DNA of 53,610 bases, the filler included, from Jimgerdemannia flammicorona (lineage: Eukaryota), in assembly GCA_003990765.1 (NCBI GenBank). It is 2 parts of 2 records of this genome, joined end to end, with 100 filler letters (N's around TTAATTAATTAA, not from the genome) between each part and the next. Parts side by side here need not be neighbours in the genome. Positions count along the whole stretch, not along the records: positions 26,860 to 53,610 come from RBNJ01000699.1; 1 more part is not named here. The stretch is one strand, 5' to 3'. Of this stretch, positions 2,741-50,149 are shown piece after piece. Within the stretch, counting starts at the first letter, position 1. Every line of letters starts with the position of its first letter. The position numbers were made by a program, and so were the translations under genes. Below the pieces are notes generated by a model. The model was not told the DNA's origin, did not search any database, and saw only the letters and a list, made by a program, of their open reading frames with translations.

Positions 2741-2744
2741 GATA

Positions 2745-15182: not shown

Positions 15183-15644
15183 CTATTCAAACTCCCAGGC
15201 TTCAACCGTCTGTATGGTCTTGTACTGTGTAATTTGCTATATGACTGTTTCCCAATGATGTCTTCTCACTTTCTCAAAGTCGGTAGGGATTACTCCTCTC
15301 AGGTGGTCTATCGCTGCTTCATCTTCTCGGAATAACTTGTGGATCCTTTTGGCAATAGTGATCTGTGAGTGGGAGAGTTGACACTCGGCAATCCAGTCCT
15401 TCTTGGTCTTTGATGGATCCTGATTGAGCATCTGTCCAAGCTTGAAGTACTCTTGGAACTCTGCATGATACTGATAGGCTCTAAAGTGTGAGATCCGAGA
15501 GAGATGCATCTGTACAATACTCTGAATATCCTCATAGTATGCCTCTATGGTCAGAGGCTCAGTGGTGTGCCATTGTCTTTCGATGGCTCTTTGGGCAGCA
15601 CTAGTGATCTTGAGTGCCATCGCAGTACTTTTATTACTGGCCAT
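15183..15644 (-). pseudogene. Family A accessory ORF (~153 aa, one premature TAG at 15237), unknown function
   Basis: ORF 15237-15644 reads on through one stop to EAWEFE*, the same end as in copy A1. Its ATG overlaps the last codons of pol. Confidence 0.75.
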
Positions 15645-18600: not shown

Positions 18601-19107
18601 GTCCAGTTGCAAGTAGGGTAGTTGTCTGGGGTTCGAGTACAGTTTCTTCTACTGTAGCGATGTCCATTCTGGCTGCGTTTTCTGACTTGTATTCTGGCAA
18701 GACTGCATTACGGTAGATCTTTCGAATCTTGACCTTGATTTCTTCATCATCACTGTCCTCCAGGAGGGCTGGTGGTTCATCATCTTCCTCCTTCTCTTCT
18801 TCTCTGATCCGTTTTTCGAGAGCTTTCTGGCTTCTTTTCTGGTAGATCTTCCTAGTTCCGATGGTGCACTAGTAGCAATCATTGACATGTTCCATACAGT
18901 ACATCTTGATTCCATGAGGACAGACTCCTTGTAGGGCATAGCCTTCTGCAATCTTCTTGTACCATTCTTCTTCACTCATCCATCTGACTTTCTTTTTCTT
19001 TGGGGTAGTCACCATATAAGCTTCCTCTTGCTCACTCTCTTCTTCCTCCATATCGGGCAGGACTCCTTTGTTGACATTGATGGGAATTTATATCTTCTGT
19101 CCCTGGT

Positions 19108-21171
19108 TGTAAGCACACAACCTCCAAGCCACCGAAATTACATGTCACCCTCTGAACAAGCCACTGAAATCACATGCGACCTCTGAACAAACCTGGAAAT
19201 CACCTGCTTGATCACGAAGCTGAGTTAAACCGAAGTCACAGCGCACAAAGCTGAGTCAATATGAAGTCACGGAATACAAGATCTACACAAACGGAACCTT
19301 ACCAATCAGGACCAAATGCATATATACCAAGCACCGAGATACATCAAATCAGAAAACCAAAACAAATAACAACCACAACTTCCAAATACACAAACATGAC
19401 CACCGAGATCTACAACCATATCCGTACTGACATTTGGAATGCCATTGTCAACCGAGCCACACCCCCTCTACCCCTCATGAATATCCATAGCCTGGCACTC
19501 CTCTACTTCATGGAAGCCCGATGGAATGCCCTAAACATGCTTAGCGAGGCCTACCGAATCAGACAAATCTCAAGCTACTACCAGATTGGCCGCCTCCTGG
19601 AAGACATGGTCGAACACCACCATGATACAGACATTACCCAGATGTCTCAACACCAGAAGCTCATCGCCCGCAAACATCGAGAACTCTTCTATGAGTACAA
19701 CACCTTTATTCCCCGCCTCCAAGTTACTACCAGTGAAATGGTTGCTACCCTGTCCTATGGCCAAATCGATGACATGATACAAGAAATCAACCACAAGTAC
19801 CTCGAATATGTCCAGACCACAGACAGAACCTTCCCGCACCCTGATGACCACATCCTGCAAATGCCTCAAGTTGGATATGCCATGAAGGATGTCTATGATA
19901 TAATCCACTTCGATGAAGACAAAGCAGAAGACAATGATCCCTCTGACACCAACATGACCTCTAGCCAAGGATCTCTGCCAACCCTGATCACTCCGCCAAC
20001 CTTGCCGATAAACTTACAACAGTTCATAACTGCATATGAGACTTATTGGGACAATGACCACTGGCACGAATACCAACCCGTGTTCACCCCCAATTACTTC
20101 AATTACAATGAAGAGACCAGAGAATACAACCTGTACCTTCAGACAACCCTCGAGATCGAACCAACCACTCCACTACCCAAGTACAAGTGACACGAACCAC
20201 AGCCACCAGCATACTATAACCCTGCAACTCATAGTGCCGTAATCTATAAAAGGTACACAGATAGTGAATCTGATGAAAGCGAAGACAATACACCCATCCT
20301 TCGCCCACCAACATCTTATCCAGCATACGAAACAGATGATGCTATCCTGTAGGATGGAGATGAAGTTCCAATGTATTACTACCTCAGCGAACAAGGAGAA
20401 GTAATCCACGAACCACTCCTTCTAGACGACTACTTCATCAGAGATGATGCAATCAATGGTGATATCATCGAAGACTACCCAGACAGTGTCTAAACCTATA
20501 AATAGTCTAGCAGTCATAGTATAGATAGATTAGCCTTATATGATGTGACTGTGAACTGACTCAGCAGTCAGATGATCCCTTGACATGTCAGATCACACTT
20601 ATACTACATGACTGCATTCCGACTCAGTAAGGCACTTAGTGCTACATCCATATTTAGCATAGTCCAGATAGCCCCTCACTAGTATAAATACCCCCTCCCC
20701 CAGACCTCAGAATCTCAGACTTGAACAATCTGAACACAACTTCTGAGTACTTCCCCACAATATCCCTTTACACAAATACTCCTAGTATAGCAATATCATG
20801 AATAGCAAATAAACCTATTCCATAACCCACAAACCACTCTTAAGTAAATCTGCTCCCTGTTAGGTCCTACTCCTAACCCTGTCACGAAATTTCCTAATTG
20901 GGTATTGTCTGCAGCAATACGCCAATTCAACTAAGCTGGTCTTAGTTTCTTGAACTTCCTGAAATACGGAAAATCCTGAACATCCAGAACTAGTCCAGAA
21001 AAGGACTTTGATTGAGACGTCAACCCGATCTTGAAATCAATAAGCATAGAGGACGTACTCCATACAAAATTGATCTTGACTATAAGAAAACGGTCTTCCA
21101 GAACATCCAGAATATCCAGAAAACCTTTCCAGAACTACGTAATGGTTACCCTAAAAAGTAATCCTCTTACA
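19108..21171 (+). repeat. Putative 2064-bp 5' LTR of element B
   Basis: Terminal inverted TGTAAG...CTTACA; PBS 3 nt downstream; TATAAATA at 20683-20690; AATAAA at 20808-20813. The second LTR is not in the window. Confidence 0.7.
19396..20493 (+). pseudogene. LTR-encoded accessory ORF of element B (~365 aa if two stops are read through)
   Basis: ORF 19261-20190 (ATG 19396). The frame continues through TGA 20188 and one TAG to TAA 20491-20493. N-terminal part resembles the family A accessory ORF. Confidence 0.7.
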
Positions 21172-21174
21172 ACT

Positions 21175-21186
21175 TGGTAGCAGCGG
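21175..21186 (+). promoter_or_regulatory. Primer-binding site, initiator tRNA-Met type
   Basis: TGGTAGCAGCGG directly after LTR-terminal CA; complementary to the AGCAG-type iMet acceptor stem plus ACCA. Confidence 0.75.
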
Positions 21187-21211
21187 TTTACAATCCAATT
21201 CCACTTCAAGA

Positions 21212-24200
21212 TGCTTCCTTACCCCGCTACAAACCCCTCTGCGAATTCCTACAAGTTGGTATAAAGCCCAACCTCTGAACTGGAATTTATCTGAACCATC
21301 TGACAATCTGGAGAGAATTGAACCTGACATACAAGGACAATTTGACCTCCACACCTACAACAAGTGGGACAAACTTCATTCTAAGAAAGAAGTACTCCGG
21401 TTAAACTAGCAAATAGGCAAAACCCTATTCACCGAACTCCTTGCACTACACCCAGCAAGTCAAGATGAAGAAGGTCTTATTGAAGCCTTCTTTACTCTTC
21501 TCAACAAGAGTTTTGTCAGCTCTACAAATCTGAGCGACCTAGGATAACCAGTAGCAGTCTTTCTAGCCTTAGTTCCTCACGAAGCCCAAGCCTCTGTAGC
21601 CAAGTGGCTCAACTCTACCGACTTTCACCATACCAGGACCAAGACCACCTTATACTACCGATTCCAGAACAGCAAGGCCTGCCATATCCTTAAAGAAGAA
21701 GCAAGAGAAACCCTTCATCAACTCTCTGACCCCAAACCTGAAGCAGGCCCTGCTACAGCCCTACCTGAATCTGAAACCAATACTGAACCTGAACTTGACT
21801 TTGAATTAAGTCCATCTGAAATCAGATATACAACTGACTCTGTCTACTTTGACACCGAGCAAACCCAATTACATGGGGACCAAACTGAAGAAGAGGAGGA
21901 GTATCTCACCGAATTTGATCCTGGATACACCACTGAAGGAGACACATGCTCATCAGGACAGAATACACCTATACAGCAACAAACAGCTATCTATTAAGCC
22001 CTCACTCCAGATCCACAACTACTACTCCAGTAACTTACACAGACCCAAAGAACCCCATCACACTCTGCACCAGTACCTCAAGTAGTACCAGTAACACTAC
22101 TACCAGCAGTCCAACCACCTCCAGCAATCAACATGGCGAACCAACAGATTCTGGATCTCACAGCCCAAGTAGCTATAATGGTAGCAACTATCACTACCTT
22201 AGCTGAACAGACCTGACCTACCAAAAATCTGAGCCTACCTACCTTCAATGGTACTGCACAAGAAGTCCAAAGCTTCATTAATATAGTTGACACCAACTTC
22301 GAAGCCAATCAATGGACTAATGAGTGAGTTGCTGACTACGTTCTGACAAACAATCAAGACCACACCCTGGAACAACTCTTTGCTACAACTACAGCCTATG
22401 TCCGCCGAGTTGTTACATTCTTCCGAGGACCTGCCGAAGAATAGTGGCGAACCCTTCCTGAAAAACCCCTCACATGGGATACCTGACCTACAGTAGTTGC
22501 TCAGAATGCAGCAAACAATGCCCCAGGATATGGAGTCCATCCTGCAGCCCCTGGACTCAAACAACTCATGATTGCTCAATATCGCAGCGAGACCATGATT
22601 GCCGAATCTCGAGTAAAACTCTGCAACCTCAAATTTGATGTATATGGCAAAGAAGAATTTGAAACCTTCTGTACAAAACTCGAGTCACTCCTGAACACTG
22701 TTGGCCTAGGATACATTGCCAATGACGAAGCATGAAATGGTACAAGAGCAGACTATTTATTCGATGCCCTGCCTGAATGGCTTACTAGAAAAATCCGAGA
22801 ACAAGGCTGCCCAGTTGGTTGCGATCACCAACAATGATGCCTGGCAAGAATCAAGACTATGGTCAAGCGAATTCTAACAGCTGGACCAATTCTGCCCCGA
22901 AGACAATTTAACAACAAGAAAAGAACTTGGACCAAGAAAGAAGAACCCAAGCATGAAGCATCTCAAGCTCCCTCCACATCCACCTCTTGGACACCCAGAA
23001 ATCATGAACCCACCCAGCCAAGTACCTTCAAGAAACTCACTGAAGGCGAAAGGAATGAACTTCAAAGAAGCGGAGCATGCTTCTATTGCCAAAAGACAGG
23101 ACATATGGCCAGTGCCTGCCCAAACTGAAAACCTCGAACAGCAACACGAGCAACTGTTACAACTCTGCACCACCTCAACAACCTGACCACCAAAATACTG
23201 GACTTTGTCAAGTTAAGACAAACTGCTAAGGCCCCAACCAAAGGAAGTCAAAAAGCAGCTGGATATGACCTGTATGCAGCCAAAGAAGCTACAGTTTCCA
23301 ACCGAGAAGTCAAACAAGTCTATACAGGAATCAGTATCCAAATCCCTGAAGAACATGTTGGAAGAATATGCTGTCACAGCAGCCTAGCACTGAAAGGACT
23401 CTCAGTAGAAGGAGGAGTCATTAACGAGGATTACACAGGCGAAATCATTATCCTCATTCGAAACCACAGTTGGACACCCTTCAAGATCCCTATTGGCTTC
23501 TGTATTGCCCAGATCCTATTCGAAAAGATCGAGTCAACCCTGACAGTCAAGGAAGTCCCTGAACTACTGCCCACCATCCGAGGATCCAAAGGATTTGGCT
23601 CATCAAACAAGGCCACAGTCCAACCTACCATGAGCAAAGAAGAACAATTCTACAAGAAGATCGAAGATGGATATGTACTAAGTGGCCGATGCCCTCATGG
23701 TATTGGAATGTACTCTTCCCGAATGATCGATGACTGCTTCTCTTGTATCAACAAACTGGCTCAAAGAAGAACCAACAGAAGGAAAGCTCCTATAACTGAA
23801 ATCACCAGTATTGGATCAGACAAACTGCTCACCCTTAAGGCTTTTGTCAATGGAGCACCTGTCAAGATTATGATAGACAGTGGTGCCTCAGGCAACTTCA
23901 TCAATGAAGAGACAGCCAACAGACTCAAGGTCTTCACCTCTCCAGTACAGCAAACTCAAGCAGTTGCTACAGCTGATGGAACCTCACATATTATTAGCAA
24001 GAAGTCCGCAATCTACCCTTCCAAATTGGCGACTACCGAGTACATGTTACCCTCCAAATCGTACCACTTCCTGACAATGAAATCATCCTTGGAACCCCAT
24101 GGTTAAAACAAGAGAACCCCATGATTGATTGTGTAAACCATTCTCTGACCATCAAGAAAGGATGCCATAACTTCAAACTACAAGGCGAAAAGGACCCACT

Positions 24201-26759
24201 CAACTCTAGTGACCCTGGACCAAAGATCACCCACATCAATAAGCTACAACTCAAGAAATTGGCCAAGAAATGCCCTCTCTTCGCCATCTCCATCTGACCA
24301 TCCAAAGGAGAACCCGAGAACTCTGAAGAAGATTTTTCCAAGACTGACAGCCGTGTCAGACCACTACTCCAGAAATTCCGAGACATATTCCCAAAGAAGC
24401 TCCCAAAAGGCCTACCTCCCAAATGAGCAGTAGACCATGCCATCAAGACTATCCCAGATGCCAAACCAGCCTTCAAGTCAATCTACCACATATCTCCGAG
24501 AGAAATTGATACACTCAAGAAGGAAATCGACGAACTCCTAGAATAAGAATTCATCAGACCCAGCGTATCACCCTATAGTGCACCAGTCCTCTTTGTTGTC
24601 AAGAAAGGAGGAGACCTGCGAATGTGCATTGACTACCGCGATCTCAATGAGCAGACCATCAAGAACTATTGCCCACTACCAAGGATTGATGAAATATTCG
24701 ATAGACTCACCAACCCACAATTCATGAGCTCCTTTGACCTGCGAAATGGTTACTGGCAAATTGCTATGAAAGAAGAAGACATCTACAAGACAGCCTTCCG
24801 AACTCGCTATGGACACTTTGAGTTCCTGGTTATGCCCTTTGGCTTAACTAATGCTCCAGCAACCTTCCAGATACTGATGAATACCATCCTGCATCCATAC
24901 CTGGACAAATTCATTGTTGTCTACATTGACGACATCCTAGTCTTCAGCAAAACCCTGGAGGAACATCTTGAATACCTTGAACTAGTACTACTGAAACTCC
25001 GAGAAAACAGACTCTTTGCAAAACTCAGCAAGTGTGAATTTCTTCTGAAAGAAATTCAATTCCTTGGACACATTGTCACTCCGAATGGAATCAAAGTGGA
25101 CCCCAGCAAAATCTCTGCAATCAAAGATTGGCCCACACCTAAGAAGCTTAAAGACCTCCAGTCATTCCTGAGATTAGCAAACTATTATAGGTGATTCATT
25201 GCCAACTTTGCTAAAATCACCACTGCCCTCACCCAAATGACCAAGCACAACAAGAAACAAGAACAACCTTGGACCATAAGAAAAGAGAAAGACTTCAACA
25301 ATCTTGTAAATTGGGGACCTGAACAAGATACTGCCTTTCAAGTGCTGAAAGATGCCCTGATAACCACACCAGTACTTCAAGTGGCAAATTCTGCCCTACC
25401 ATATGAAGTTACTACTGATGCCTCTGACCTAGCTCTTGGAGCAGTGCTCATGCAAGAAGGACACCCTGTGGCCTATCACTCCCACAAGTTCAATGATGCT
25501 GAAATCAACTACGCAATTCATGAGAAGGAAATGCTAGCCATCGTGGACACTCTGATCAAATGGTGACCATATCTAGAAGGAGCACACTTCACTATATTAA
25601 TAGACCACAAGTCACTAGTCAACATCAAGACCCAGGCTACCCTTTCTCGAAAGCAAGCTAGATGGATGAAAGTCCTCACCAACTTTGACTATGAAATTCA
25701 GTACCACCCTGGCAAGGAAAATATTATTACTGATGCAATCTCCAGACCACCAATCGAAGAGGTTATCCAAACTCTGACCTTGGTTACCGACACTATCATG
25801 GAACAAATCATCGCAGCATATGTTGATGATAAAGAAGCTCAAGCACTCCGAGAAATCCTGAACAATGATGATGCCAACAAGTATACCTGGTACAATCAAT
25901 ACCAACTCAAGGACAATGCTATCTACTACAAGGACAGACTGTATGTCCCAAACAACCGAGACCTCTGAAGGACTATCCTATTCAAATGTCATGATGCCCC
26001 TACAGCTGGGCATTTAGGATTTGACAAATGCTACAAAGTTATCTCCTGAAACTTCTATTGGCCCCGCATGGCAGATCAGCTCAAAACCTATATTACTTCC
26101 TATGATGCCTGCCAACGAAACAAGTCCTCAACACTAGCAAAACCTGGCTTACTTCACCCTATCCCAGTACCATCTGCAAATTGGGAACAAATCTCTATGG
26201 ACTTCATTATACAACTACCCCAAACCAAGAATGGGAAAGATGCAATTGTTGTCTTTGTGGACTACCTCAGCAAACAAACCCACTTTGTGCCTACTACCAC
26301 TACTGCAACAACACCAGACATAGCCATACTCTTGTTTGACAACATCTTCCACTATCATGGTATTCCTAAGATCATTGTTAGTGACTGAGATCCGAAATTC
26401 ACCAGCCACTTTTGGAAAGCCCTCCATGTATACCTTGGAACAAAACTTGCACTATCCACAGCCTTTCACTCTGAAACCGATGGCCAAACCAAAAGAATGA
26501 ACTGAACTCTGGAACAAATGCTAAGGAACTATGTCTCCTACAGACAAGATGATTGGCATGAACACCTCACAGCAGTCGAGTTTGCCTATAACAACAGCAA
26601 GCAAGCCTCTCTTGGAATGACCCCATTCTTCGCCAACACTGGACAAAATCCAAACACCTCTTTGACACTTATCTGAACCACTGAAGAACCCTCCACAGTC
26701 GAAGCTGTTGAAGAATTCCTACTCCGAATGCGCAATCTAAGCCAGATCGCAATTGAGAA
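21212..26759 (+). pseudogene. gag-pol of element B (gag-NC-dUTPase-Zn motif-PR-RT-RNaseH-IN) with nonsense mutations and a frameshift near 24000
   Basis: One reading frame from ~21212 through the protease, interrupted by TGA/TAA/TAG; RT ORF 24622-25194; RNase H ~25390-25750; integrase HHCC and core from ~25950. Confidence 0.9.
23200..23606 (+). pseudogene. dUTPase domain of element B, between NC zinc knuckle and protease
   Basis: Manual translation: APTKGSQKAAGYDL...SSLA...GGVINEDYTGE...IAQ...RGSKGFGSS, in frame with gag and protease. Confidence 0.9.
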
Positions 26760-26859
26760 NNNNNNNNNNNNNNNNNNNNNNNNNNNNNNNNNNNNNNNNN
26801 NNNTTAATTAATTAANNNNNNNNNNNNNNNNNNNNNNNNNNNNNNNNNNNNNNNNNNNN
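26760..26859. other. Artificial contig-joining linker
   Basis: 100-bp N block with central TTAATTAATTAA (stops in all six frames); flanking contigs are 26759 and 26751 bp. Confidence 0.95.
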
Positions 26860-27000
26860 TTGTTGGATTGCATTATCGCCATCACACATGTATTTCGCAT
26901 CACGCAAAATCGCCATACCACCACCACCACCACCACCACCACTTTTTTTTTATATATTCCCTTTACTCGAGACATATTGTAATGGTTGCATGAGCGAATG

Positions 27001-27270
27001 TTAGCCCTTTTCTGTTGTGTTACGAGTATTTAATAGAATCAATATTCGGATATTATTCATGAGAGGTTGTCGAGCAAGTTCTGCATTGCCATGAAAACGA
27101 TTTCCAACAGCGACAAGGACAAAGCTGAAGAGGAGATCGAGGTTGATGTGGATCCCAACGTCAGCACTCGCGGAGGACGAGAACATTGCGACGAGTCTGA
27201 ATGCCAGGCCTAACGCCAAGTATCCTGCTGACGACAGCTCGTCTGAAATTTGGGTATTACCCTCGAACAT
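27001..27270 (-). CDS. Possible small hypothetical protein (89 aa)
   Basis: ATG in cagccATG context within CpG-normal sequence; no recognisable motif. Confidence 0.2.
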   Translation of the reverse strand: MFEGNTQISDELSSAGYLALGLAFRLVAMFSSSASADVGIHINLDLLFSFVLVAVGNRFHGNAELARQPLMNNIRILILLNTRNTTEKG

Positions 27271-27445
27271 GGCTGTTGCTGAGGTTGTTCGTGGTCTCCG
27301 AGAGCTTGGTGAATTGAAATTGCTTTTGACCTTTTTTGATTGTGCTGTTCTTTGATATAATTGGCTTTATACATATGTAGATTGCCTCATGGGATTGGTT
27401 GTGTTAGGGATACTATTAGATAGCTTAACTGGATTCAGTAGGGTG

Positions 27446-27658
27446 TAGTGCTTACAAATTAATTTGAATTGAATTGAATTGAGGATTTTTATTCAAATTG
27501 AGGTTTGATTTATATATAAGACAAATCCAATAAGTTTAAAATGTTAAGTAGTTGAATTTTAAATTAAATTAAATTCAAATCAAATTAGATCTCAATTTGA
27601 TTTAAACTATTTTAAATTTAACTTAAATCTAATTCAATTTTATTTATTATAAATACTA
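27446..27658. mobile_element. Degenerate hAT-like MITE, same type as 1081-1281
   Basis: Ends tagtgcttaca...tataaatacta; aattg-rich interior; flanking 8-mers gtagggtg / ataaagta differ only by G>A. Confidence 0.6.
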
Positions 27659-27849
27659 ATAAAGTAGTTAAAGATATTTATAAGTAAATAATAAAATTAA
27701 TATTTATTATTAATAATTTTTTTATAAAATCTATATATACTTTGTTACTATATTTTAAATATTAATATTAGATATATAATATTATTACATAATATAGATA
27801 TTATTATTAATTATTACTAAATACTAATATTACCTTGTTCTTTAGTATA

Positions 27850-27854
27850 TATTA

Positions 27855-27885
<31 letters not shown>

Positions 27886-29560
27886 TTATATAAACTCTAT
27901 ATTTTATGGATTTTTATTAAAAGAGAATCTAGACTAGTACTCAGAATGAATTAAATTGAATCAAATTTACCTCTAATTTGATTCAATTCAAAATATTCAA
28001 ATCAAATTAAGAGTTAATTCAATTCAATTCAATTCAAATCAAGGCTCAATTCAATTCAATTTAAATTAAATTGAGGTCTAATTTAATTTGAAGTCTAATT
28101 CAAACCTAATTTTTCAAAATTCAATAACTTGACTAAAAATATCCAAATTTAATAAATTTAATGAATTTTAACTTGTTTAATATATCTTATAATAGAGAAT
28201 CTAGTATAATAAAGAATATTAAATTTGGGTATATTTCTATTGAGTTATTATATTTTGAATTTAGAATAAATATTTCAAATTGAATTAGATCTTAATTTAA
28301 TTTGATTAAATCAAATCAGATCTCAATTTGATTTGAATTTAATTTAAATTCAAAAATTTCCAATTTAATTTAATTTGAATAATCCTCAATTTAATCCAAT
28401 TTGAATTAATTTAATTTATTTAAGAGTACTAATTTAGACTATATAGACTAAAACTCTCCTCTACTCTACTCTAAATACTATATAGACTTACTATTGTCCA
28501 GTAACTCTATCATGCCAAATATAGTAGGATAAATAGCCTATATCTCATTCTATATACCATACTCTCTCTATTATTAAAGAGAAAATAACCATATATCAAT
28601 AACTGAAAATATATATCTAAAACTCTAATATATATATATATAAGACTATATATATTAGAACTAGATAGCAAAGTCTCACTACTTCAAATAGAGTAACAGA
28701 TAAAAAAAAAACTCTCCAAAAGATATAAAATAGTGGGTAGAAGCTAGTTCTCTCTAATAAAATGAATAAAGAACTTATATATAAGATAGAAAGAGACCTA
28801 CAATACTCTACTACTTAAGTTTACAGACCTTAATTATATTATTATATCAGCTCTTAGTTCTAGTTAAGTACAGTCTAAATATCTAATTTAGATAGTCTTA
28901 GATCTCTTAATAATCTCAAATAACTAGAGCCTAATCTCATATATTATTAAGAGCTACTAAGAGTGATACTTATTATCTAACTACTTTATACTAATTAGAA
29001 GATCTCACTAATATAATATCTATATTAGTCTTAATAATTGTTATTAGTCTGATATTTAACTGATTTACTATAATTATCTACCTATTTATCTGTAATAGTT
29101 ATCTTTTCTTCTATTCTGATATTATCTAAAAAGTAGTTATCTATATTAGAACCATACTTACTAAGAAGCTTATCAAAACTCAGAGGATCTATTACAGATA
29201 CTGAGAATCTATCAAAATCTTTACTGGTACTTAATATCTCAAGGTTAGCTAACTTTCTATTAGCCTAAAATATATTACAATTATATCTTATTGATAATAG
29301 TAAAAAAAAGAAGATATTATACCAAAATAGATATATATACTTCAGATATAGCCAGAGGTACCAAAAACTGTAAAAAAAGTAGAGAAAACACTAATTCAAT
29401 ACTAATAAAGAGATGACTTATTACTATTACCTTTCTTCTATCATTCTATAATAGATATAGCAAATTAACCTAAGGTAAAGAAAGGTAAAAGTTATAGAAA
29501 GAGAACTCAGAAGGTTATTTATCAAAACCTTATAATTAATATAGTAGTAGAGAAAGAAGC
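27850..29560 (-). mobile_element. AT-eroded second copy of the 8424-9620 (TAA)n-tailed element, interrupted by a MITE
   Basis: Shared blocks such as agactatatag..aaaactctcc, aaagaacttatat, aggtacca..aactgt, ctcagaaggtta; (att)n at 27855-27885. Confidence 0.7.
27935..28431. mobile_element. hAT-like MITE (~500 bp)
   Basis: TIRs tagtactc...gagtacta; 8-bp TSD atctagac / atttagac; the empty site acctagac is seen at 8493-8500. Confidence 0.8.
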
Positions 29561-30219
29561 CATATATATATATTATATTATTATTATTATTAACTGAGTT
29601 AGTACTTTTATTATTAATAATATTATCTATACTACTAATAGTACTTATATATATATACTATTAATATTATTATTACTTTTATTACATAAAAAGAGTTTTA
29701 TTAATTAGTTATAGATATCAGATTAATAAAACCACTTATAGATCTTATAAAATTAGTACTGATTACTTATATAAATATTGTCTATATAAATATTACTTAA
29801 ATATTATTATATAGTATATATATATATTAGTTTAGTTACTATAATAAGTATCTTAATAATTATTTCTTTTATAATATCTATATTTTCCATAATTATCTTC
29901 AAACTTAGTCTAACTATACCTTTGATCTTATTAGTATTTCTTATCTTATCTGTAGAAGTTATAAAAGATTTTTTTATTATTATTACTATTATCTCCATTA
30001 AATATAAATATTTATATATATTAATCTCATTAATCTTATTTCTATATTGACTTCATTGACCTCATTTGTCTCATTGAATTTATTAGCCTTATTGGTCTTT
30101 TCTATAATTGTCTCTATCATTTGAAAGAGGTTTATTATTATAATTACCTTTATCATCAGAGAGGACTTTGTTATCATAATTGCCTCTACTATCTAGACAG
30201 ATATAATTATCTATTATCT

Positions 30220-30946
30220 AGAGCACCTCTTTCTCTTCTCTTCTACTCCCTCTCCTCTCTCAAAAAAAAGCTCACCACATATCTGAACCAATGGCCCATA
30301 CCAAGCAAACCACCCACAAGTCCACTGGTGGCAAGGCTCCTCGTAAACAGCTTGCTACCAAGGCCGCTCGCAAATCTGCCCCTGTCACTGGTGGTGTCAA
30401 GAAGCCCCATCACTATAGGCCTGGTACTGTTGCTCTTCGTGAGATCCATCACTACCGCAAGCTACCCTTCCAGTGCCTTGTTCATGAAATCGCCCAGGAC
30501 TTCAAGACTGACCTGCACTTCCAGAGCTCTGCTATCAGTGCCTTGCAAAAGGCCTCTAAAGCTTATATCGTCGTCTTATTCGAAGACACTAACCTTGCTG
30601 CGATCTACGCCAAGCGTGTCACCATCCAGCCCAAGGATATTCAGCTTGCCCATCACCTTCGTGGTGAGCAGTCGTAAACTCTCCTATTCTTGTCTGCATC
30701 CTCATTATCCGCCCCCTTCATGATAACATCATCTTATGGTCGGGGTGTTCCCGCCCTTCTGTCATACTTTTTGTTATGTATTATATATATCCTCTGAGTT
30801 GTACTTATCGCAAGCATCTCGTTTTCTAATATCGGTAGCTTTGTTGTTTGCCCTGCTGTGTATATATTGCCGCCTGCTTTATGGCATGTTCTGTGGATTT
30901 GTACAAAATAAACTCGCTTGAGTTTGTGCATAGCCTTTGCAAAAAA
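30220..30946 (+). pseudogene. H3: Processed (retrotransposed) histone H3 pseudogene; ORF 30291-30677
   Basis: Intronless fungal-type H3 with R>H/A>T/E>K changes and loss of QKSTELLI; UTRs; AATAAA 30907-30912; A tract from 30941; 15-bp TSD aattatctattatct at 30205-30219 and 30947-30961. Confidence 0.92.
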
Positions 30947-31419: not shown

Positions 31420-32620
31420 GTTCAGAGTTCCAGCATGGTTAAGATCTTGCTCTGCCTCAGATACTCGGTCAGGGAAGCGTGCCCCCTCGTCGCCGATCCT
31501 GTTGTCTGAACATGAACAGGGGGATGCAATATTGTGAGCTTGATTCTATCGCGTGGCTGCACACAATGCTGCACATAATTTCGACATACTAGCGTGGCCA
31601 AGGTTGTGTTCTGCTTCAGAGACTCGACTAGGGCACGTGCCCCCTCGCCGCCGATGCTGTTCTCTGAACATGAACAGGGGAGGGGGTACACGCACAGATC
31701 ATGAGCTTGATTACATCATGCAGCTGCACACAATGCTACACACAGTTCCAACATACTTTCGAGATTCAGCGTAGTCAAGGTCGTGTTCTGTTTCAGAGAC
31801 TCGGCTAGGGCGCGTGCCCCCTCGTCGCCGATGCTGTTCCCTGAACGTAAACAGAGGGAATGCACATATCGTGAGCTTGATTCATCGCACAGTTGCACAC
31901 AATGCTTCACACAGTTCCGACATACTATATTCGTTCGTAAAAAGCCATGATAGCCCGTATTCGAAGCGGTCTGGACATGAACAGAGAATGGATGAGCGAA
32001 CACACACGGATCGAACACGCACGGATCGTGAGCTTGGTTCTATCACTCAGCTGCACACAATGTTTCATACAGTTCCGACATACTTCCGAAATTCAGCGTG
32101 GTTATGTCGTGTTCTGCTTCAGAGACTCAGCTAGGGCGCGTGTCCCCTCGCCGCCGATGTTGTTACCTGAACATGAACGAGCGAACACGCACGGATCGTA
32201 AGCTTGATTCCATCGTGCTGCACACAATGCTTCACACAGCTCCAACATACTTTCGAGATTCATCGTGGTCAATATCGTGTTCTGTTTCAGAGACTCGGTT
32301 AGGGCGCGTGCCCCCTCGTCGCCGATGCTGTTCCCTGAACATGAACAGGGGGTGGATTAACGAACCCGCACGGATCGTGAGCTTGATTCAATCACAAAAT
32401 GCTTCACACAGTTCCAACATACTGAAAGATTCAGCGTGGTCAAGGTCATGTTTCGCTTCAGAGACTCGGCTAGGGTACGTGCCCCCTCGTCGCCGATGCT
32501 GTTATCTGAACGTGGATAGGGGGTGCAGCTGCACACAATGCTTCACACAGTTCCAACATACTTTCGAGATTCAGCGTTGTCAATGTCGTATCCTGCCTCA
32601 GAAACTCGGCTAGAACGGCC
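31420..32620 (-). repeat. Tandem exon+intron array of 28-aa LRRs (~7-8 units of ~140-180 bp)
   Basis: 84-nt exons at 31757-31840 and 32251-32334 (83 nt at 32084-32166 and 32423-32505), each with ttcag| acceptor and |gtatgt donor; intron sequences are repeated too. Confidence 0.85.
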
Positions 32621-35600
32621 GCGAGCAATTTCGCGACCTCGACGTGCCCACAATTCACGGCATAGTGCAGCGGCATCCCTGGTTGTTCCTGACGCCCTGA
32701 ACTCGGTCACGAGCAGCCTCACAACTTCGATATACCCTCCCTTCGCAGCCATGTGCAGCGGCGCCCACCCGTCAATGTTCTTGGCGTTGGGTCCGCTCCG
32801 AACACGATTATGAGTATTACTATGAAATCGACATGCCCGTTTTCTGCGGCACAGTGCACTAGCTTGTTACCCTTCTTGTCCTTTGCATTGATGTTTGCAT
32901 TGAATTCGAATACGAGTAGCTCAAACAAATTGATGTAGCCCTTCTTTGCAGCTAGGTGCAACGGAGTCCGACCATGCCTATCCTTCAATTCGACGTTGGC
33001 GTTGGGTTGATTGAGCAGCGATCTGATCAATGTCATATGACCACCCTCAGCAACAGCGGAAGAGAAAGATCAAACTTGATCGACAGACCTTCTGTCTTGT
33101 TTTCATCATAGATTTTGTACCAATAATTCATTCTGTTTCTGTCCTTCTCAACGCCACGGCCGAACCGATAGCAATTTTGAACCTTTTCTTGTGCTCCTTT
33201 GTCGCCAGCCTCTGAAACCTTCAAGTACCATTCTTCTCGTCCATGTCAACGGCCCCCCCTCCTTCCTCGTAACAAACAGCAATGGTTAGCTGCGCTTCTA
33301 AATGTCCATTTATCGCAGCTTTAGTGCACCAGTCAATCTGCTTCTCTAGATTATTTGCAACGCCGAAGCCTACTCCATAACATAGTGTAATATAGAACTG
33401 TATCTCCGAATCATTCTGCATGTCGGCAACGGAATTTTCGGTAGCGCCAAACTGGTGATTGAGGAAGGAGGATGTAGGGTATAAAACCTTGTGTCTTTCT
33501 CCATAAACCTGGGACGCCAGTCACCCGAACCTTGAATCGTACTTGAGTTCATTCAGCGAGCTCTGTTGCCAAAGTTTGTGTAAATTGTTCTCTGCAGACA
33601 ATACCAATGTACTGTTATTATCCAAAGCCTTCTTCGCTAGTGTTGCTGAGAAGGGAACCTCAAATAGTCTTAACTGTCCAAGCAATGATTTAAGACTATC
33701 ATCTAGGTAATCTGGATACATTTATCGACTGAATCGTAACGTTCTTCAAGATAATCTGTCGCATCCCGTAGCCGGTCGTTGATGTGGTTGACGAATTCTT
33801 CAACAGGCTCCATGCAGTTATTGAATACACCACCAAGAAGACGAATCGACAATGGATAGGCTACTAATCTTTTTTGCATCGTCATCGTCAATATCATCCG
33901 AACGTTGAGAAGCCCATTGCCGAAAGATCTGCATACCATCATGTGGTGCTAAACCATTCAGCTCGATAAATTGTTCATTGGGCCAATCGAGCGCGATTCT
34001 TGATGTTGCAAGAACTTCGATGTTTTCCGGTATTTGGTGGAAAAATCTCATCAAAGATATTACATCATTTTCCGTCGCCGAGTCTTACATGTTTGACATC
34101 CTCCATCAAGATAAAACAGCGTCGGCCTTCCACTTTGCTAACTTGGCTATCACTGCATTTCGCAAAATCTTAGGATCTCGAGACATTTCGATGTCGATGT
34201 TGAGAAATCCGGCGATCATTGAAATTACTGAATCCGAGCTCGGGTTTCCGACGAGTGATATCACCAGCACTCTGCCAGAGTTGAAGTTCTTGACCGCTTG
34301 GATTGCCAAAGCCGTTCTGCCCATCCCGCCAAATCCACGAATAGTGATGTAGCGAATTTTCGTATCACGGAGTAGTTCTTCCAATTTTTGGAGCTCTTGC
34401 TGACGTCCAAAAAATTCTCCATATGCATTGACATTGCCGAAATCTATGTCCGTTGCCGGGTGGTTCACATTGCCGATTTCCGCTTCCGATGCTATTGATT
34501 AAAATGTAGCATTGTCAGTGAGCGACTCCTGTTAGTTTCCCCTGTTCACATTTTTACCCCTAAGGGTTTCTTCACCTGGCAAAGTATTGAGATCCATTCG
34601 TTTTATGGGTTATTTCTACCCAGTTTATGTATTCAAATAAGCAGTTCGATGACGGTATTGTGAGTTTGCATTGTTCCCAACAATCGTTGCTTGGGGAGTG
34701 GAAGAGACTGCAACTCACCGGGAGGAGGTTCTGTCCTAATTATAAATGCGTCTTCTCTAGACAGGATCGTAAAGATTCCATGGCCTTCTTCATCAGACTT
34801 ACATTCTTTTCGGCATTTGTGGTAGCCCGTTCGGTGAGCTCGGTGTTGGTATGATACAAACACAGGATGAACGGCGATTTATTTTCTGTCACAATCGGTA
34901 TGATGTGCTCCATACAGAACTTAGGAAAGCTCGCGTGGAGGATTTCGGACGCATTACGTCTGAACACACCAACCCACCAAATAACATTTGCTGCTGCACG
35001 CCGTCCCTTTCGAGTTTGTGGCCGCTGATGCCAGGAATGTCAACAATGTTGTAGTATTGTTCTTCACTTCATTACGGGCATAGTCTTGGATACTTCGGAG
35101 TTGCCATTCAAACACCATGGAAATTCCTGGGGTAAAAAATCAGAAGATAGTGCACAGAGGAAACCCAAAATGACCGAATTTCAACTGCATTACTCGCCAT
35201 ATTTAGATGGTTTGGCAACTCCAATTACAAACGTGTCATCATATACGCCGAGTACCAGCAAGCAAAGTCGCAGTTTCATTACCGAATTACACTGTCTCAC
35301 GCCTTCTCTAAGAGCGACGTGGATCCTGTATTCACCATCTATTTTCGACAATAACTTAATATCGCATAGTTGCTGCAGGTTCTCGTTACGATAACTGACC
35401 CTTTCTGGCGATGAAGAGGTGTGGTTGACAAAATAACGTACGAACGCGAGCACTCCTTCTGTGATTGGTCCGATGGCAACGTGTCAGCGAAGTCGAGACT
35501 TCCTGCGTCTTGATCTTCAAAGATAAGTGCCCTCGCACCATCGTTCTGCAAGCCACAGTGTCCCATGAAGTGAAGCACCGTGGCCATCTCAGCATTTACC

Positions 35601-36240
35601 TAAGCAACTCGTACATTTGGTCGACGGTCGGCGGGAACACACACTGCAGTAATACCGTTCGATCGTTTTCTTATACTCATCACATAATGCCTGAAACTGA
35701 TCGTTCAGATGCAGATCTGGAGATTGCTTTGCGTTTGGATCGTTCGGCAGGATGACGGGTCCAGTACGACGGCGACGATGTGCAGCGGAAGTTTCGAAGG
35801 CTGAGGCTCCTTCAGTTTGAGGAGGGGCAGCGAAAATAGCGAAAGTAGCGAAAAATTCGATGGCAGAGGGCTGCCCCACGCGTACTCCCAGGGGATGACG
35901 TCGAGGTCGTGGTCGTAGCAGGATCCGACGCTTTGAGAGAGAGGCCGTAACATGTCCTGCAGCCGACGCCGGGCGGGGCTGGACTCTTTTTCCGAAAAGA
36001 GGGCCCAGAACAACTTTTTTCCGTATTTTCTGAGGGCCGCAGACTTGGGTTTTACATCGAAGACATTGACGGCGATGAGTCGACCCTCTTGAATATCTTG
36101 AAGGTTGAAAGGAATGGTTTTCAACAAGCTCAGCCAAGAGATCATCGACGTCGGAAACCTTGACGTGGACTCTGATTTCTTTGGGGTCATCACTATTGGT
36201 ATCCTTTCACAAGAATATTTGCATGTTTGTGAGTGTATGG
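31420..36240 (-). pseudogene. Disrupted NLR-like gene: CHAT protease - NB-ARC-type ATPase - Sel1 - ankyrin - RI-like LRR
   Basis: CHAT-like LDVIPWEY, VLHFMGH, LIFED, VILS (35400-35900); FFGRQQEL...GFGGMGRT P-loop (~34300-34420); VLATSR; Sel1-like CYGVGFGV / CYRFGRGV; ankyrin GRTPLHLAA; LRR NSIGDEGARALAESLKQNTTLTTLNL. Many frameshifts. Confidence 0.75.
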
Positions 36241-37079
36241 GTGTTGGTGTTCTCGAGTCAAGCATGCGTTTGACAAACACCTCGCTGTTCGACCTCGAAT
36301 TCGTTCTTGATGCCGATCAAGCACGCAATCGGTGGCTTGTTTCCAGGGAACCTTAATTCACTTCTTGTTTCGTCCGTTTCTGCGTAGGCTGGTGCTTTTC
36401 AGAGCGTCTTTGATGTCTCCGTTCCTTCTGGTTTGTTGGATTTTCTGTTGTGAAGTCTCATTTCGATGTTTGATCGTGCATTACCCTAAAAATCAGGCAA
36501 GGAACGTCCCCTTGTATATACTCGCCGATGCCTATGGATGAGATGAAGCGAATTGAGGGCAATGAGGATATTGGTGATACCGTCCGCGCAACGCATACCA
36601 TCCTGGATTGAGTTCACGATGTTGCTCAGGTTGGCAGCGTTACCTGTATGATACTGATGTGGAGGGATTGAAAAGGGTTTAGAAATCGTGGTACGCACTA
36701 TGCGGGCAATTCAATCTCCAAATCAAATATATCTTGCGCACATCCTCGTGGCTGCTGCACGTCGCCCTGGTCTTGCCATCGGCCGAAAGCTGGAGCACAG
36801 GCACGCTGACTTGATAGCCAGCTTGCAGGACCTGGACTTTAGAAAGCACGGATGGCCCCTGATGACGGCGACTTTGACCGTCGTTATTTCTTTTTAGTTT
36901 AGTTAGGTGGCTCTGATACATCTTTTTCCTCTTGCACAACCCTGATGTGTGCGTGCAGTAGTATGTATCGTTCGCACGATGCCAGATTATATTGCTACCG
37001 GACATAATGACATGGCTCACATGAATGGGGTTTGGTTGGGGTTGATTGTCTGATGTAGGCCATGAGAGAGGGTGAAGGT

Positions 37080-37117
<38 letters not shown>

Positions 37118-37432
37118 ATCGACGGATGGGAGAATGTCGGAGAGGAAATCCTCACACTCTGCATATTGGACATGAAGGATCCTGGGATCCGTCGAATCCT
37201 GACGATTTCGCAAGAATTTGAGGTGGGTAGCTTTTATCGTGTGTAGTGTAACGCGGCGTCGTGCCAATAATAAAGTATTGATCGGGGCGGAAATAGAGGA
37301 AGGAAGCACCAACATCTAGTGCGCTATCAACATGATACTCCCATCTTCCCTCCCTCCGCATTCCACAAACCCCTTACAATGACACACCGCCCACTTCTCT
37401 CTCTCTGCTTCCCTCTCATATCTCACCACTCA

Positions 37433-38656
<1,224 letters not shown>

Positions 38657-39603
38657 GATTGGATTGATTCGAATGATTAGGTTGTTTTTTGGACAAGATC
38701 CAAGAGGCAGATTTTTATACTGGTGTGCGCACGTGCTCCCTGCGCCACCGACCCCTGTCACGCCTATCGACATAGCCTTCCACCGCCGATACACCTTTTA
38801 AGGGTATTTCGCACGACATCTGTAAGGTTGAGAGATTAGCTCGGATTTCGAACATCTAACGCCACATCAACGCCAATGGGCCACGTATGTATGAATCAGT
38901 AAGGTTATTCTTGCAGTGGGCGCAGTGATAATTCCAATAAAACTTTGGCGCCTTGAATTCTTTAAACTGGCTTGCGGAGTATTTATATACAACTCGGACA
39001 TTTGATGACGTAATGGATAGGTGATCGGGCAGTTTTGGATATAATTACTCCTTATGTATATATTTGTTTCCACACCAGGATAGCCACTATCCGAATCATC
39101 GCATGTCGTTAAGGACAGCTCCATCCAGCATTATTTTGCTAATAATCATTTATTTTAACATATATATATATACTATTAAATTAGATAAATCTAGATATGA
39201 GATTTAAGTTAGTAATGTTTAAACTTACATATCTAATAAAGCATGTTAGATAAATAATCAATACAAGATTAATAAAAGATCATTATACTCTAATAACTTA
39301 AATATTTTATTTTTATCTAAATTGGATATAATCAAATATTTGTAAATTTCAAATTTAAGTTGGTTTGGATTGTAACAAATTTTTTTAGATCACATTTGGA
39401 TATTATTCTAAAACACGATGTACTTTCAGATAAGTCGCAGTTTCCATGGTTTAATACCTGGTATTAATTTCAAAGGTACAAAAATTACGAATCATTAAAA
39501 AACGAAACGAAACCTCAATGTGATTACTTAACCGCAGACGACCATTACACTCCACGCATTCAGAACAAAGAAAGGCAAAAGCGACTCAATAAGTCAATTA
39601 CAT

Positions 39604-47154: not shown

Positions 47155-50149
47155 TGCGTGTGGAGAGAGAGAGGAAGTTGAGGTCAGAAGAGCCAAGAAG
47201 GTTAATTTTTATTTCCTTCTTAGTACAAGGGTGACTGGTAGTTCGTGGGGTTTTATATGCATACAGTGGTTACCTTGATCGGAATGAATCCGTTATAATA
47301 ATGGCACCCGGGCACATGGCTCTAAGGCAGATCCCGCCAATCGTCAAAAGGCGCGTTTACTCCCTCACCATAACACCACATGCAACCGCATCAGCCACCC
47401 CATCTCGATGATCAGGCGCCCAAGCGCGCAAACAATGAGAGCGCCGACAGCCTGACGCGTCTTGGGATACGCACCCGCACCACGTGAGGCGGTGCGGGGA
47501 ACCGGGCCTGTTTGGGAAAGAGGTCCCAAATTGGCCCCCAGTGCGGGGTTCGTGTCTCGAGACCAAACTCTTGACAGGTCTTTGTTTGGAGGTGGCGCTG
47601 GGGTAGTGTGTATTACTATACGGCTGGGTCGACGATCAAAAAGCTCGGCAAATCACGTTTAAGGATGAATGTGGGGCGGAACAAAGAGGGTTTATCATAG
47701 GATCAATAACCCCGTACTAGGCGATATTTAAATTCTGCATACCTCCACCCTAACTGTCAACGACCACCCGAATGACAATTGTCAAACGTGTCACTATCCA
47801 TAACGCCCATCAGGATCGCCTTCTGCTCCACGATTCTCAATTAGAGCCATATAAATTATTCGCGCCGTCCGCACGGGTTCGCCCGTCCTTTCCATGAGAT
47901 GCATGCCTGGACCTGCAGCTCCAAAATTATGTTTTCCCATTGAAGTTGTAGATGAACTGCATGAAGCATAACATCAATAAACACAGAGCGGTACGCAAGA
48001 AAACCCAAGAACCCGAGCCGCAGATTTTGATGATCGAGCTGTGAAATCTTGGCGCCTAGATCCGAGTCGTCGTACAACTCAAGGGATCGATTACGTCGGC
48101 CTCTGAAATAATGAATGCAGGCATACATCATCACCCTTTTGGCAATCTTTTCACTACGAATGGGCATCTCGACGGCTCCTAGCCACTGCAAAACGCCAAG
48201 TCCAGAAGCGCGAGTGTTACAAAGAAGCATTGGCTTTTGGGGTGGGTTCCCTCGCGTCTGTACTTCATCACATGAAAGGGTGACGGCGAATCATGAAGAG
48301 ATGTGTTCATTTTTTCGGATCAGGTCAAGGATCTTCTATCGATCCAGATGGGTTTTCAAAGCAATCACAGTTTTCTTGATGGGATTTCCAGTTTTTCTTT
48401 GGGCGGGAATATAGGTCATTGTGAGGTGTGTGCCTTTCCATACTCAGATATTCGGATAAAGTTAGAGTTTTCTTGATATTGATACAGACCTTCTGTTTCA
48501 CACATACTATTTGGGCTCATTAATATTTTAATTGAGACTTTTAACAATGCCAGATCTACTGGACAAGAAGATGAATTATTCTGAGATTTATTTTAGTATT
48601 TCAAATTTGACAGATTTGAATAAACAAGTAAAATATTTATTATTATATATTAAGAAAGATTAAATGTTAAAATAATTATTTAGAAGTAATTTATTTATTA
48701 CTTTATAAAAGTTATTTTATTTGCTATAAAAATCTGTATTAATTAATTTTCAAATAATAATAATATTTTTTATATTATCTATTTGATTATTTTATATTTA
48801 AATATAAAAGTAAAAAGATTTGATCATTAATTTAAATTAAGTAATAATAATTTATTTAAAAATTAAAATATTAATATTAAATATATATAATAAGTTTTTA
48901 ATACAAACTATATATTTTTATAGCTAAAATATTAAATTTAGTCAAATAAATATATATAAAATTACTTTATATTCCAAGACAAAAATTCCAATTTATCTGA
49001 TTTATTTGATTTAACATTATGGACTAAATTATTTAAAGCTTCAATTTAATTTCATTTAGGTCTAGCATATTTGTCTTCTTGGTTATTCTTTCCACAGTAC
49101 AAATGACGGTTATGCAACAGCAGCATGTGCGTGCGCCACACTATGCCGCAGCCACGTGCACGCTCCACCAAGCGTTTCAGCCCCGCTCACGTTTGGCCAA
49201 TGTTCACCTTCAATGTTCAGTACGGCGAATCTATAAATCACCCCACGTGACTAATAGTGTTCTGGGGTCCATGAAACGTCATCCAAATAGTCATGTGCTC
49301 AAGATTGGGTAAAATAATACTATTCACTAAAAATCATTGTGTAATAATATTTTTTTGATGTATACTATTATAAAATTTATATAGTATTAGAAATTTATAT
49401 AGTGATTTCCATTTTAAGAAGTATATAATTTTGGCTCAATATAATAAAAATTCTTTTTTGAGACAAAAAAAAAAAAAATTAAAAAAAAAATTCTGACTCT
49501 GTCAAGTTGTAGTAAAGAATTATTCTACAGAATTAGGGTTTTAAAGTTTATAGATTCAGGTCGTGTTAATTGCATCTTCATTTTTGTCAGGTTGCTGTTC
49601 CAGTTGTCCGCCTAAGTCTCATTTTTCACCAGTACATCTGATGTGACATGAATACTGCCTGAACAACCTGCTGGTGGTGTCAGTAGAACGCCAGATAAAT
49701 GCTGATTTGGACATGTATAAAAATCGTTGGGGATTTATTCGGAGGAAAAGGGTGCAGTATATTTGTTTATCAAAAATTCGCAGCGGTCGTGTTAAGCGTG
49801 GACTGAGTCCTTTCCGCGGCTGGTAGAGGATGATCTATGATTCCATATCTCTTTATTTTGACCCACTCGAAATTCTTCAACTTATATAGACAGCAGAAGA
49901 ATGTCCAATCGCCCCATGCTGTCAGGAGGACCTTCATCGATGATTAAATCGCATGACTCTCGTCCTTTATTTTTACACTCACATTAGCGCCTTGCTAATG
50001 TTATGAGAGGTTTAGCTCATTCCTGTTATTTCAAATCAATGTGAAGATGTTGAGAAGGGCGAAACCCCAGGATAACGCAGCACAGCAACACCATCACCGG
50101 GCGAATTAGAATTGGGGAGGTGCTTGGTGCTTCACTACTGGAATCACGA

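Follow-up and report, generated by a model that had tools for sequence, protein, structure and literature searches.

Fungal NOD-like receptors (NLRs) with CHAT or S8 protease effectors are known, and many of them adjoin gasdermin genes whose products are activated by the protease (passages of PMC9815663, PMC10197012 and PMC8851545). The sensor repeats of fungal NLRs are described as ankyrin (ANK), tetratricopeptide (TPR) or WD40 repeats in place of leucine-rich repeats (LRRs) (passages of PMC9815663 and PMC10197012). Surveys also list HEAT repeats among these sensors. The passages of a fungal survey from 2014 state that "no LRR motifs were found", propose that fungi have lost the combination of NOD and LRR, and add that NLRs were not found in Mucorales or chytrids (PMC4986451). 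Another study scanned 122 proteomes with LRR models included and with Bifiguratus as the representative of the Endogonales; its text passages and 12 of its 17 supplementary files report no LRR-bearing NLR (PMC12258605). Our literature searches, with the Endogonaceae genome paper outside their reach, found no report of an LRR-bearing fungal NLR. Here we describe an NLR-like pseudogene that ends in LRRs, located in a stretch of 53,610 nucleotides (filler included) from Jimgerdemannia flammicorona (assembly GCA_003990765.1), which we call the window; the pseudogene lies in the part that comes from RBNJ01000699.1.

We consider it probable that this locus is a dead copy from a multi-copy NLR-like (STAND) family of an Endogonales-like fungus, the intact form of which would be composed of CHAT, linker, NB-ARC, Sel1, ANK and LRR. 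CHAT as an effector of fungal NLRs is already known, and the LRR tail is the unusual part. A sequence-only reading of the window had proposed a decayed NLR-like gene with a CHAT effector, an NB-ARC-type ATPase and a Sel1-ankyrin-LRR sensor, and this proposal is backed by colinear relatives across each junction.

Domain order and relatives of the pseudogene

From about 36260 to 31422 the minus strand consists of a succession of short open frames in which all three phases are used. Pfam was run on 25 stop-to-stop fragments of the pseudogene, and CHAT, NB-ARC and Sel1 were assigned via relatives aligned frame by frame to the window copy. The alignments give the order CHAT, linker, NB-ARC, two Sel1-like repeats, about 4.5 ankyrin repeats and LRRs, and the whole is colinear with the relatives P0152, P0014, P0015, P0004, P0151, P0013, P0012 and P0272 (Table 1). 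The five domain types that had been noticed in one orientation over about 4.8 kb, at 31420-36240, do all lie on the minus strand, between 36260 and 31422. The check with hidden Markov models that had been suggested gave a divided result: Ank and LRR_6 pass on fragments of the window, whereas CHAT finds no match there and NB-ARC and Sel1 stay below threshold, all three passing in the relatives.

Table 1. Positions of the pseudogene, its domains, motifs and exons in the window
Feature	Position	Strand	Basis or remark
Whole pseudogene	31422..36260	-	N-terminal region, CHAT, linker domain, NB-ARC, Sel1-like pair, ankyrin, LRR exon array
CHAT (caspase-like protease) domain	35350..36040	-	4 frameshifts and 1 in-frame stop relative to P0152
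CHAT His motif HFMGHC	35555..35572	-	ATVLHFMGHC identical in P0152; aligns with VVHFMGH of bacterial-type P0164
Codon at CHAT catalytic Cys position	35420..35422	-	Thr (LSTT, LSAC in P0152); placement tentative, low local identity
Linker domain, CHAT to NB-ARC	34695..35185	-	common to Endogone gene model P0014 (RUS12921.1)
NB-ARC-type NTPase domain, frameshifted	33620..34420	-	HMMER relatives; NB-ARC above cut-off in P0015, P0003, P0012
Walker A GFGGMGRT	34313..34336	-	Arg replaces Lys, codon 34318-34316
VLATSR motif	33998..34015	-	translation; ILATSR in relatives
Two Sel1-like repeats	33110..33413	-	homologous place in four relatives passes Pfam Sel1
About 4.5 ankyrin repeats	32610..33069	-	Pfam Ank E 1.1e-17 and 6e-6; alignment to P0015
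Junction exon	32562..32706	-	last ankyrin repeat in frame into first LRR strand TTLTTLNLE; GTATGT donor at 32561
LRR array	31422..32561	-	seven introns, each GTATGT...T[TC]CAG
LRR exon E1	32505-32423	-	83 nt, one base short
LRR exon E2	32334-32251	-	84 nt, undamaged, phase 1
LRR exon E3	32166-32084	-	83 nt, one base short, stops inside
LRR exon E4	31970-31926	-	45 nt, wrecked
LRR exon E5	31840-31757	-	84 nt, undamaged, phase 1
LRR exon E6	31663-31590	-	74 nt, 10 nt short
Last LRR exon	from 31505	-	frame shifted

The CHAT assignment comes from P0152, a protein of 1270 residues which holds CHAT, a divergent NB-ARC-like NTPase and 13 ankyrin repeats in one open reading frame (ORF). Its residues 16-265 match the window at 36226-35480 (tblastn, E 4.8e-24), and its residues 90-345 are CHAT in Pfam (61.6 bits, cut-off 24, E 1.1e-16). 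The earlier remark that a catalytic Cys is not evident agrees with our alignment, which is weak at this place: the Cys is found in the LSAC of P0152 and the LNAC of P0164 and is aligned with Thr in the window copy, which keeps the His motif LHFMGHC. Between CHAT and NB-ARC, residues 53-120 of P0014 match 34967-34746 (tblastn, E 2.9e-12) in an alignment that requires 2 frameshifts, and P0014 also matches 34420-34202.

The NB-ARC domain (PF00931) is clear in the colinear relatives P0015, P0003 and P0012 (38.7, 50.1 and 31.3 bits). Residues 37-668 of P0015 match the window at 34408-32617 (tblastn, E 7e-121), and the frameshift-aware alignment to this protein has 329 of 620 residues identical, with a score of 1430 against 47 for a reversed-protein control. 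The VLATSR motif claimed before is present in the translation; we take it to be the RNBS-B/TTR-like position of NB-ARC. Together with LFYLD..MED, which is split by frameshifts, and YPLSIRLLGG, it aligns to the relatives in the same order, and the three correspond to the Walker B, TTR/TSR-like and GxP (GLPL-like) motifs. Further downstream, the place of the Sel1-like pair (PF08238) scores 34.9-43.8 bits in P0004, P0012, P0013 and P0015 (42.1 in P0015; cut-off 30.7). Ank was found directly in 3 of the 25 window fragments, with 63.6 bits on 32722-33069 and 26.7 on 32546-32866 (cut-off 21.1).

An exhaustive HMMER search with a 130-residue NB-ARC fragment found 426 proteins at E <= 0.001, 21 of them at <= 1e-10 and the best 71% identical; a word-based search with the same fragment returned nothing among 596 candidates. 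We scanned 17 of the 150 listed HMMER matches with Pfam. Four of these (P0004, P0012, P0013 and P0015) combine NB-ARC, Sel1 and ankyrin, P0051 is a CHAT-NB-ARC-TPR protein, and LRR_6 was found in none of the 17. Searching with P0015 added the family members P0151, with the same architecture, and P0152. The relatives come from ORF calling on short contigs, which for the six long family members named below measure at most 7.4 kb. Two of the eight that we looked up are named, both as Endogone sp. FLAS-F59071 (Mucoromycota, Endogonales).

Such a chain of broken frames raises the question whether it is one gene at all, or two or more unrelated neighbours, such as a CHAT-ATPase gene and an ankyrin-LRR gene, that merely appear continuous. 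For this speaks that the ORF-called relatives P0015 and P0004 begin at NB-ARC, and no transcript of the whole region was seen. However, P0152 has CHAT, NB-ARC and ANK in a single ORF, four relatives share NB-ARC, Sel1 and ANK in one ORF, and P0014 extends about 150 residues upstream of NB-ARC. Its match reaches to about 35185, within about 160 nt of the last CHAT-aligned residue, so there is no space for an intergenic region, in line with the earlier statement that no obvious intergenic gap exists. The separate-gene arrangement, which the sequence-only reading had named as what would refute it, is thus contradicted by P0152, P0014, the four relatives P0004, P0012, P0013 and P0015, and P0272, which bridge the successive junctions, and we find it scarcely credible.

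Outside the family, the best matches of P0015 over its NB-ARC part are CHAT-NB-ARC-TPR proteins with 30-36% identity. Several of them are named as Ktedonobacteraceae, Chloroflexi or Anaerolineae, and many come from metagenomes. P0152 and the bacterial-type P0164 can be aligned colinearly over 626 columns that begin in CHAT and take in the NB-ARC arm (28% identity, E 1e-43), the alignment including the HFMGH and L.AC motifs. This similarity points to a CHAT-linker-NB-ARC module common to the fungal family and the bacterial-type proteins; it says nothing on transfer or its direction. A metagenome scan with an alignment of 12 relatives (A1) gave 80 loci of 23-37% identity with bacterial-type NB-ARC and no close family member. 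In a protein Atlas query with residues 1-520 of P0015 the best value was 0.87 (guide 0.9), with NB-ARC/TPR clusters from bacteria and eukaryotes, which is a lead only.

LRR exon cassettes and their junction with the ankyrin repeats

Over the LRR array Tandem Repeats Finder reports a period of 171 bp. Each unit is made of an 84-nt exon, which encodes one 28-residue LRR, and a phase-1 intron of about 87 nt with the ends GTATGT...TTCAG; in each, GTATGT is followed by a box resembling CTCAC, then by a run of pyrimidines and finally by TTCAG or TCCAG. This reading of the 171-bp repeat, as a cassette with one LRR per 84-nt exon, is new here. GTATGT is found in 7 copies in the 1.1-kb array and in none in the remaining 3.7 kb of the gene. 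The introns are, in order, 56, 88, 84, 113, 85, 93 and 84 nt long, and this free drift of their lengths between 56 and 113 nt is as expected of non-coding sequence, while the undamaged exons are exactly 84 nt. Of these, E2 and E5 each encode a canonical 28-residue unit ..NSIGDEGARALAESLKQNTTLTTLNLE. We also considered the 171-bp unit as a pair of A and B repeats of 57 residues in total, and rejected this in favour of the exon-intron reading.

The LRRs are of the ribonuclease inhibitor (RI) type, with the 28-residue period LxxLxLxxNxIGDEGAxxLAxxLKxNxT. LRR_6 (PF13516) was found in 3 of the 25 fragments, with 24.7 bits on 31719-32039 and 23.7 on E5 alone (cut-off 23.4). All 12 proteins matched with the LRR fragment list PF13516, and a Jimgerdemannia protein with MYND and LRR_6 is 43% identical to it.

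Contigs from two public sequencing runs, X1 and X2, also cover parts of the array. That these are RNA runs is a guess; we used only the covered parts and inferred no expression level from them. Contigs of both runs connect the last bases of one LRR exon (31757-31761) directly with the first base of a different one (32334/32335, 31829-31839), and the few letters between the joined exon ends bring the unit to 84 nt in all three cases computed. A weak hint is that contigs of two studies end at 31505 and 31507, about the predicted first base of the last exon. With a one-letter omission at 31475 taken from X1, this last exon reads ...LTEYLRQSKILTMLEL up to a stop at 31424-31422, which suggests a natural C-terminus.

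At the upstream end of the array a single open frame, 32470..32706, contains the last ankyrin helix together with the TTLTTLNLE strand of the first LRR. The ORF of P0012 ends in ...ELNLKGMLEIS, and its tail aligns to TTLNLESMLEL of the window at the homologous donor, as would be expected if the ORF reads through into the same intron. P0004 ends in ...ELDLKGLLEM, which is similar by eye only and failed to align. The last ankyrin repeat of P0013 was aligned through the unusual stretch AVL.E...TT..TL. P0272, an independent ORF of 178 residues from a JGI contig, shows Ank_4 (24.3 bits against a cut-off of 22.7) and directly after it LRR_6 (E 7.6e-25) with a 28-residue period. Judging from the short ORF tails and P0272, a conserved ANK-LRR junction appears more likely than a one-off fusion.

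The first 15 nt or so of the intron (32561-32545, ..SMLEL..) recur in the tails of P0012 (..GMLEI..), P0004 (..GLLEM..) and P0271 (..GMSEL..). LRR intron starts thus look conserved between paralogues with only about 50% protein identity. Possible reasons are homogenisation of the cassettes or a constraint on the intron.

A competing explanation is that the functional family consists of CHAT, NB-ARC, Sel1 and ANK, that the LRR array was added at this locus by ectopic recombination with one of the many LRR cassette arrays of the organism, possibly after the death of the gene, and that the five-domain order is accidental. LRR_6 is listed in none of the six long relatives (P0015, P0004, P0151, P0013, P0012 and P0152), and LRR_6 arrays occur with other partners, as for example MYND in P0269. 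The cassette is furthermore highly abundant in the runs, with 79 contigs (X1) and 108 contigs (X2) at 31791 and 9-12 contigs over parts of the Sel1 and CHAT regions, counts that also speak for a multi-copy receptor family; the part 31561-32495 belongs to a very large repeat family, its summed depth being 6,000-93,000 versus 17-1,000 in the rest of the gene. These observations have to be set against the junction itself, where the two repeat types share a reading frame up to a canonical donor. P0272, from another source, has ANK and then LRR_6 in an unbroken ORF, the P0012 tail aligns at the junction of the window copy with LNL and the GT-start read-through (the P0004 tail being alike by eye), and for P0013 the alignment of the last ankyrin repeat extends over AVL.E..TT..TL. 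An accidental addition of the LRRs therefore seems unlikely to us, and we favour a family whose intact members presumably retain the LRR tail.

Several further observations weigh against this five-domain family. The CHAT model found none of the 25 window fragments, nor, with the limit relaxed to E 10, any of 8 fragments from the N-terminal and central parts. The only fragment with a signal for the NTPase, 34109-34498, matches AAA_16 (E 4e-5) and reaches 17.2 bits for NB-ARC at a cut-off of 23.5, and Sel1 likewise scores below its cut-off in a single fragment (E 0.046, 14.8 versus 30.7 bits). Among the relatives retrieved we found neither an intact paralogue with the same five-domain architecture, which the sequence-only reading had advised looking for, nor one natural protein in which all five domains come together. 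The ends of P0015 and P0151 are different, and the LRR continuation of the relatives is read from just 5-8 tail residues. The joined exons in the run contigs may stem from spliced RNA or from paralogues without introns, the type of run being guessed. A Pfam scan of 18 ORFs, flanking ones and others, showed no neighbour resembling a gasdermin gene; this search covered long ORFs, and fungal gasdermins are divergent and intron-split. Finally, the function of the family is drawn from analogy only.

Decay of the window copy and its surroundings

The copy had been called broken, with frameshifts, and this is borne out. Between NB-ARC and the ankyrin repeats (34500-32600) the alignments to 5 relatives at 3 penalty settings require 6-13 frameshifts; at least 7-11 are counted at consistent places, and they recur near 33860, 33712, 33527, 33467, 33230, 33050, 32789 and 32686, and a cluster at 34135-34067 holds three frameshifts or two in-frame stops. 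To these are added the lesions in CHAT and the linker and the damage to 5 of the 7 downstream LRR exons. The Walker A change from Lys to Arg, pointed out before, is indeed in the translation as GFGGMGRT; the Lys (K81) is invariant in alignment A1, which marks the Arg as a lesion, and the X1 contig is identical there. By its sequence the window copy is judged to be a dead, non-functional pseudogene.

The question is then how much of this damage is real. If the gene were intact in the organism, the frameshifts would be errors of this assembly. The X1 contigs, which are about 99% identical to the window, do carry extra letters at five sites (4 at 32675, 10 at 32692, 10 at 33049, 11 at 34084 and 11 at 35149) besides five further differences of 1-2 letters. 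The insertions reopen frames like those of the relatives (...SLPLLHRAAEGGHMTLIR..., ...MEDVKHVTKKEDSATENDVISLMRFF... and ...EFRADANVRNNQGKMPLHYAV...), and with the X1 indels applied the alignment to P0015 needs 9 frameshifts instead of 13. However, the X1 contigs run gap-free across the lesions near 34132, 34104 and 33230 and retain the Lys to Arg change. By its reopened frames and retained lesions, X1 holds an allele or paralogue that has decayed less but is likewise broken. X2 contigs, at low depth, equal the window letter for letter where aligned and are gap-free over 32538-32913, 34788-35139 and 35411-35561, with the caveat that X2 may be the window's own sample. Exon E4 with its 45 nt and E6, short by 10 nt, also speak against assembly errors. 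We regard an intact gene behind a faulty assembly as very unlikely, and the extra lesions of the window appear from these comparisons to be real deletions.

The deletions themselves are of an odd kind. At ten indel sites in 31590-35149, blocks of 10, 10, 11 and 11 nt are lost relative to X1, and E6 is short by 10 nt. Each loss shows 1-2 nt of microhomology, and substitutions number no more than about 19 over some 2.7 kb, so that the window copy has an excess of deletions of approximately one helical turn. We considered mutation of the repeat-induced point mutation type as a cause of the decay and found no support for it: a strong C>T/G>A excess was not seen among the differences to the run contigs (in X1, A>G 17, T>C 12, C>T 11 and G>A 8), and most of the lesions are indels.

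The surroundings of the pseudogene hold ordinary genes as well as retrotransposon remains. Blocks of 17-32% GC (1-2000, 13000-15000, 27000-30000 and 48000-49000), among them AT-rich ones of 17-27%, alternate with blocks of 40-55% GC in an isochore-like manner, flanking transposon remains and pseudogenes. Three long terminal repeat retrotransposon remains, at 2000-9000 (-), 15000-19000 (-) and 19000-27000 (+), show RVT_1, RNase H, integrase and aspartyl protease; they have a dUTPase domain within the pol region (E 2.3e-33 and 6.1e-25) and a strong strand-specific AT skew. Runs of N lie at 26760-26803 and 26816-26859. At 9742-13604 (-) lies an Argonaute gene whose ArgoN, PAZ, ArgoL2, Mid and Piwi domains are distributed among several frames or exons. 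On its upstream side the NLR pseudogene adjoins an intron-split gene of the UDP-glucose 4-epimerase / NAD-dependent epimerase family at 37436-38797 (-) (Epimerase E 9.3e-48), with a poly(A)/poly(T) run between the two near 37080-37120.

On the opposite strand, some 750 nt away from where the pseudogene has its 3' end, a histone H3-like open frame is found at 30222-30677 (+) (Pfam Histone, E 4.7e-28). Compared with what we take to be the canonical H3, it has many changes from Arg to His (..PHHYRPG.., ..LAHHLRG..) and an internal deletion, and appears to be an H3 copy in decay, with transitions of the CpG type. At 50155-52995 (-) lies a long array of TPR_10/TPR_12 repeats of the kinesin-light-chain type, split across many overlapping frames, and the TPR parts of the bacterial-type P0160 and P0051 match the window at 52133-51753. 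A second NLR-like gene, of which this array would be the decayed sensor, is probable here; its 5' part would lie past the window end.

Proposed function and comparison with known receptors

By analogy with the CHAT-NLRs described above, an intact member of the family would be a ligand-gated, self-oligomerising protease. From N- to C-terminus it would have the CHAT effector, the linker, NB-ARC as a nucleotide switch and a composite sensor, in which two Sel1-like repeats and the ankyrin repeats precede a tail of RI-type LRRs of 28 residues each. Binding of a ligand by the repeats may release the NB-ARC switch, the protein may oligomerise, and the clustered CHAT protease domains could then cleave a death-executing substrate, which would give the family a role in immunity or cell death.

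A broader proposal, to which we give about even weight, is that an expanded NB-ARC family of Endogonales-like fungi built sensors that end in RI-type LRRs from 84-nt phase-1 cassettes, independently of plants and animals, and that these were shuffled onto a bacterial-type CHAT-NB-ARC core. If this is true, fungi would possess a NOD-LRR architecture after all. A Mucoromycota family with LRRs behind NB-ARC would qualify the proposed loss of NOD/LRR in fungi, and would represent a third independent assembly of NOD plus LRR. The route of assembly would be simple, with one LRR per phase-1 exon that is duplicated along with its intron. Protease-armed all-in-one receptors would also extend to early-diverging, plant-associated fungi. 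The value of the window copy is that of a pointer to such a family.

The nearest described systems are the fungal CHAT-NLRs, in which a caspase-like CHAT is likewise fused to a NOD module and superstructure-forming repeats, presumably with the same logic of an all-in-one receptor and protease. Their sensors are ANK, TPR or WD40 repeats, whereas the family of the window, from a Mucoromycota-like lineage, adds Sel1-like repeats and the RI-type LRR tail. The layout of fungal NLRs given in passages of PMC4986451, one protein with an effector at the N-terminus, then NACHT or NB-ARC, and ANK, TPR or WD repeats at the C-terminus, is found here in the order of CHAT, NB-ARC and ANK that is common to P0152; the LRR tail is an addition to what those passages describe. 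The bacterial-type CHAT-NB-ARC-TPR proteins are colinear over CHAT, linker and NB-ARC module, but they have a TPR_10/TPR_12 sensor and no introns, in contrast to the Sel1-ANK-LRR sensor of the window gene.

Plant NB-ARC-LRR resistance proteins also have an NB-ARC switch that is followed by LRRs, but their effectors are CC or TIR. The plant LRRs belong to another subtype and are placed directly after NB-ARC. Searches for relatives with the NB-ARC fragment and with P0015 did not show a close sequence relation to these plant proteins. The animal NACHT-LRR receptors (NLRC/NLRP) resemble the window gene in that they combine a NOD module with an RI-type LRR_6 sensor. They differ in having NACHT and a CARD or PYD adaptor, where the window gene has NB-ARC, a protease, and ankyrin and Sel1 repeats between NOD and LRRs. 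Animal NLRs likewise use modular exon cassettes of compatible phase to encode their LRRs. The LRRs of the window are set apart from these by their arrangement of one 28-residue LRR per 84-nt exon.

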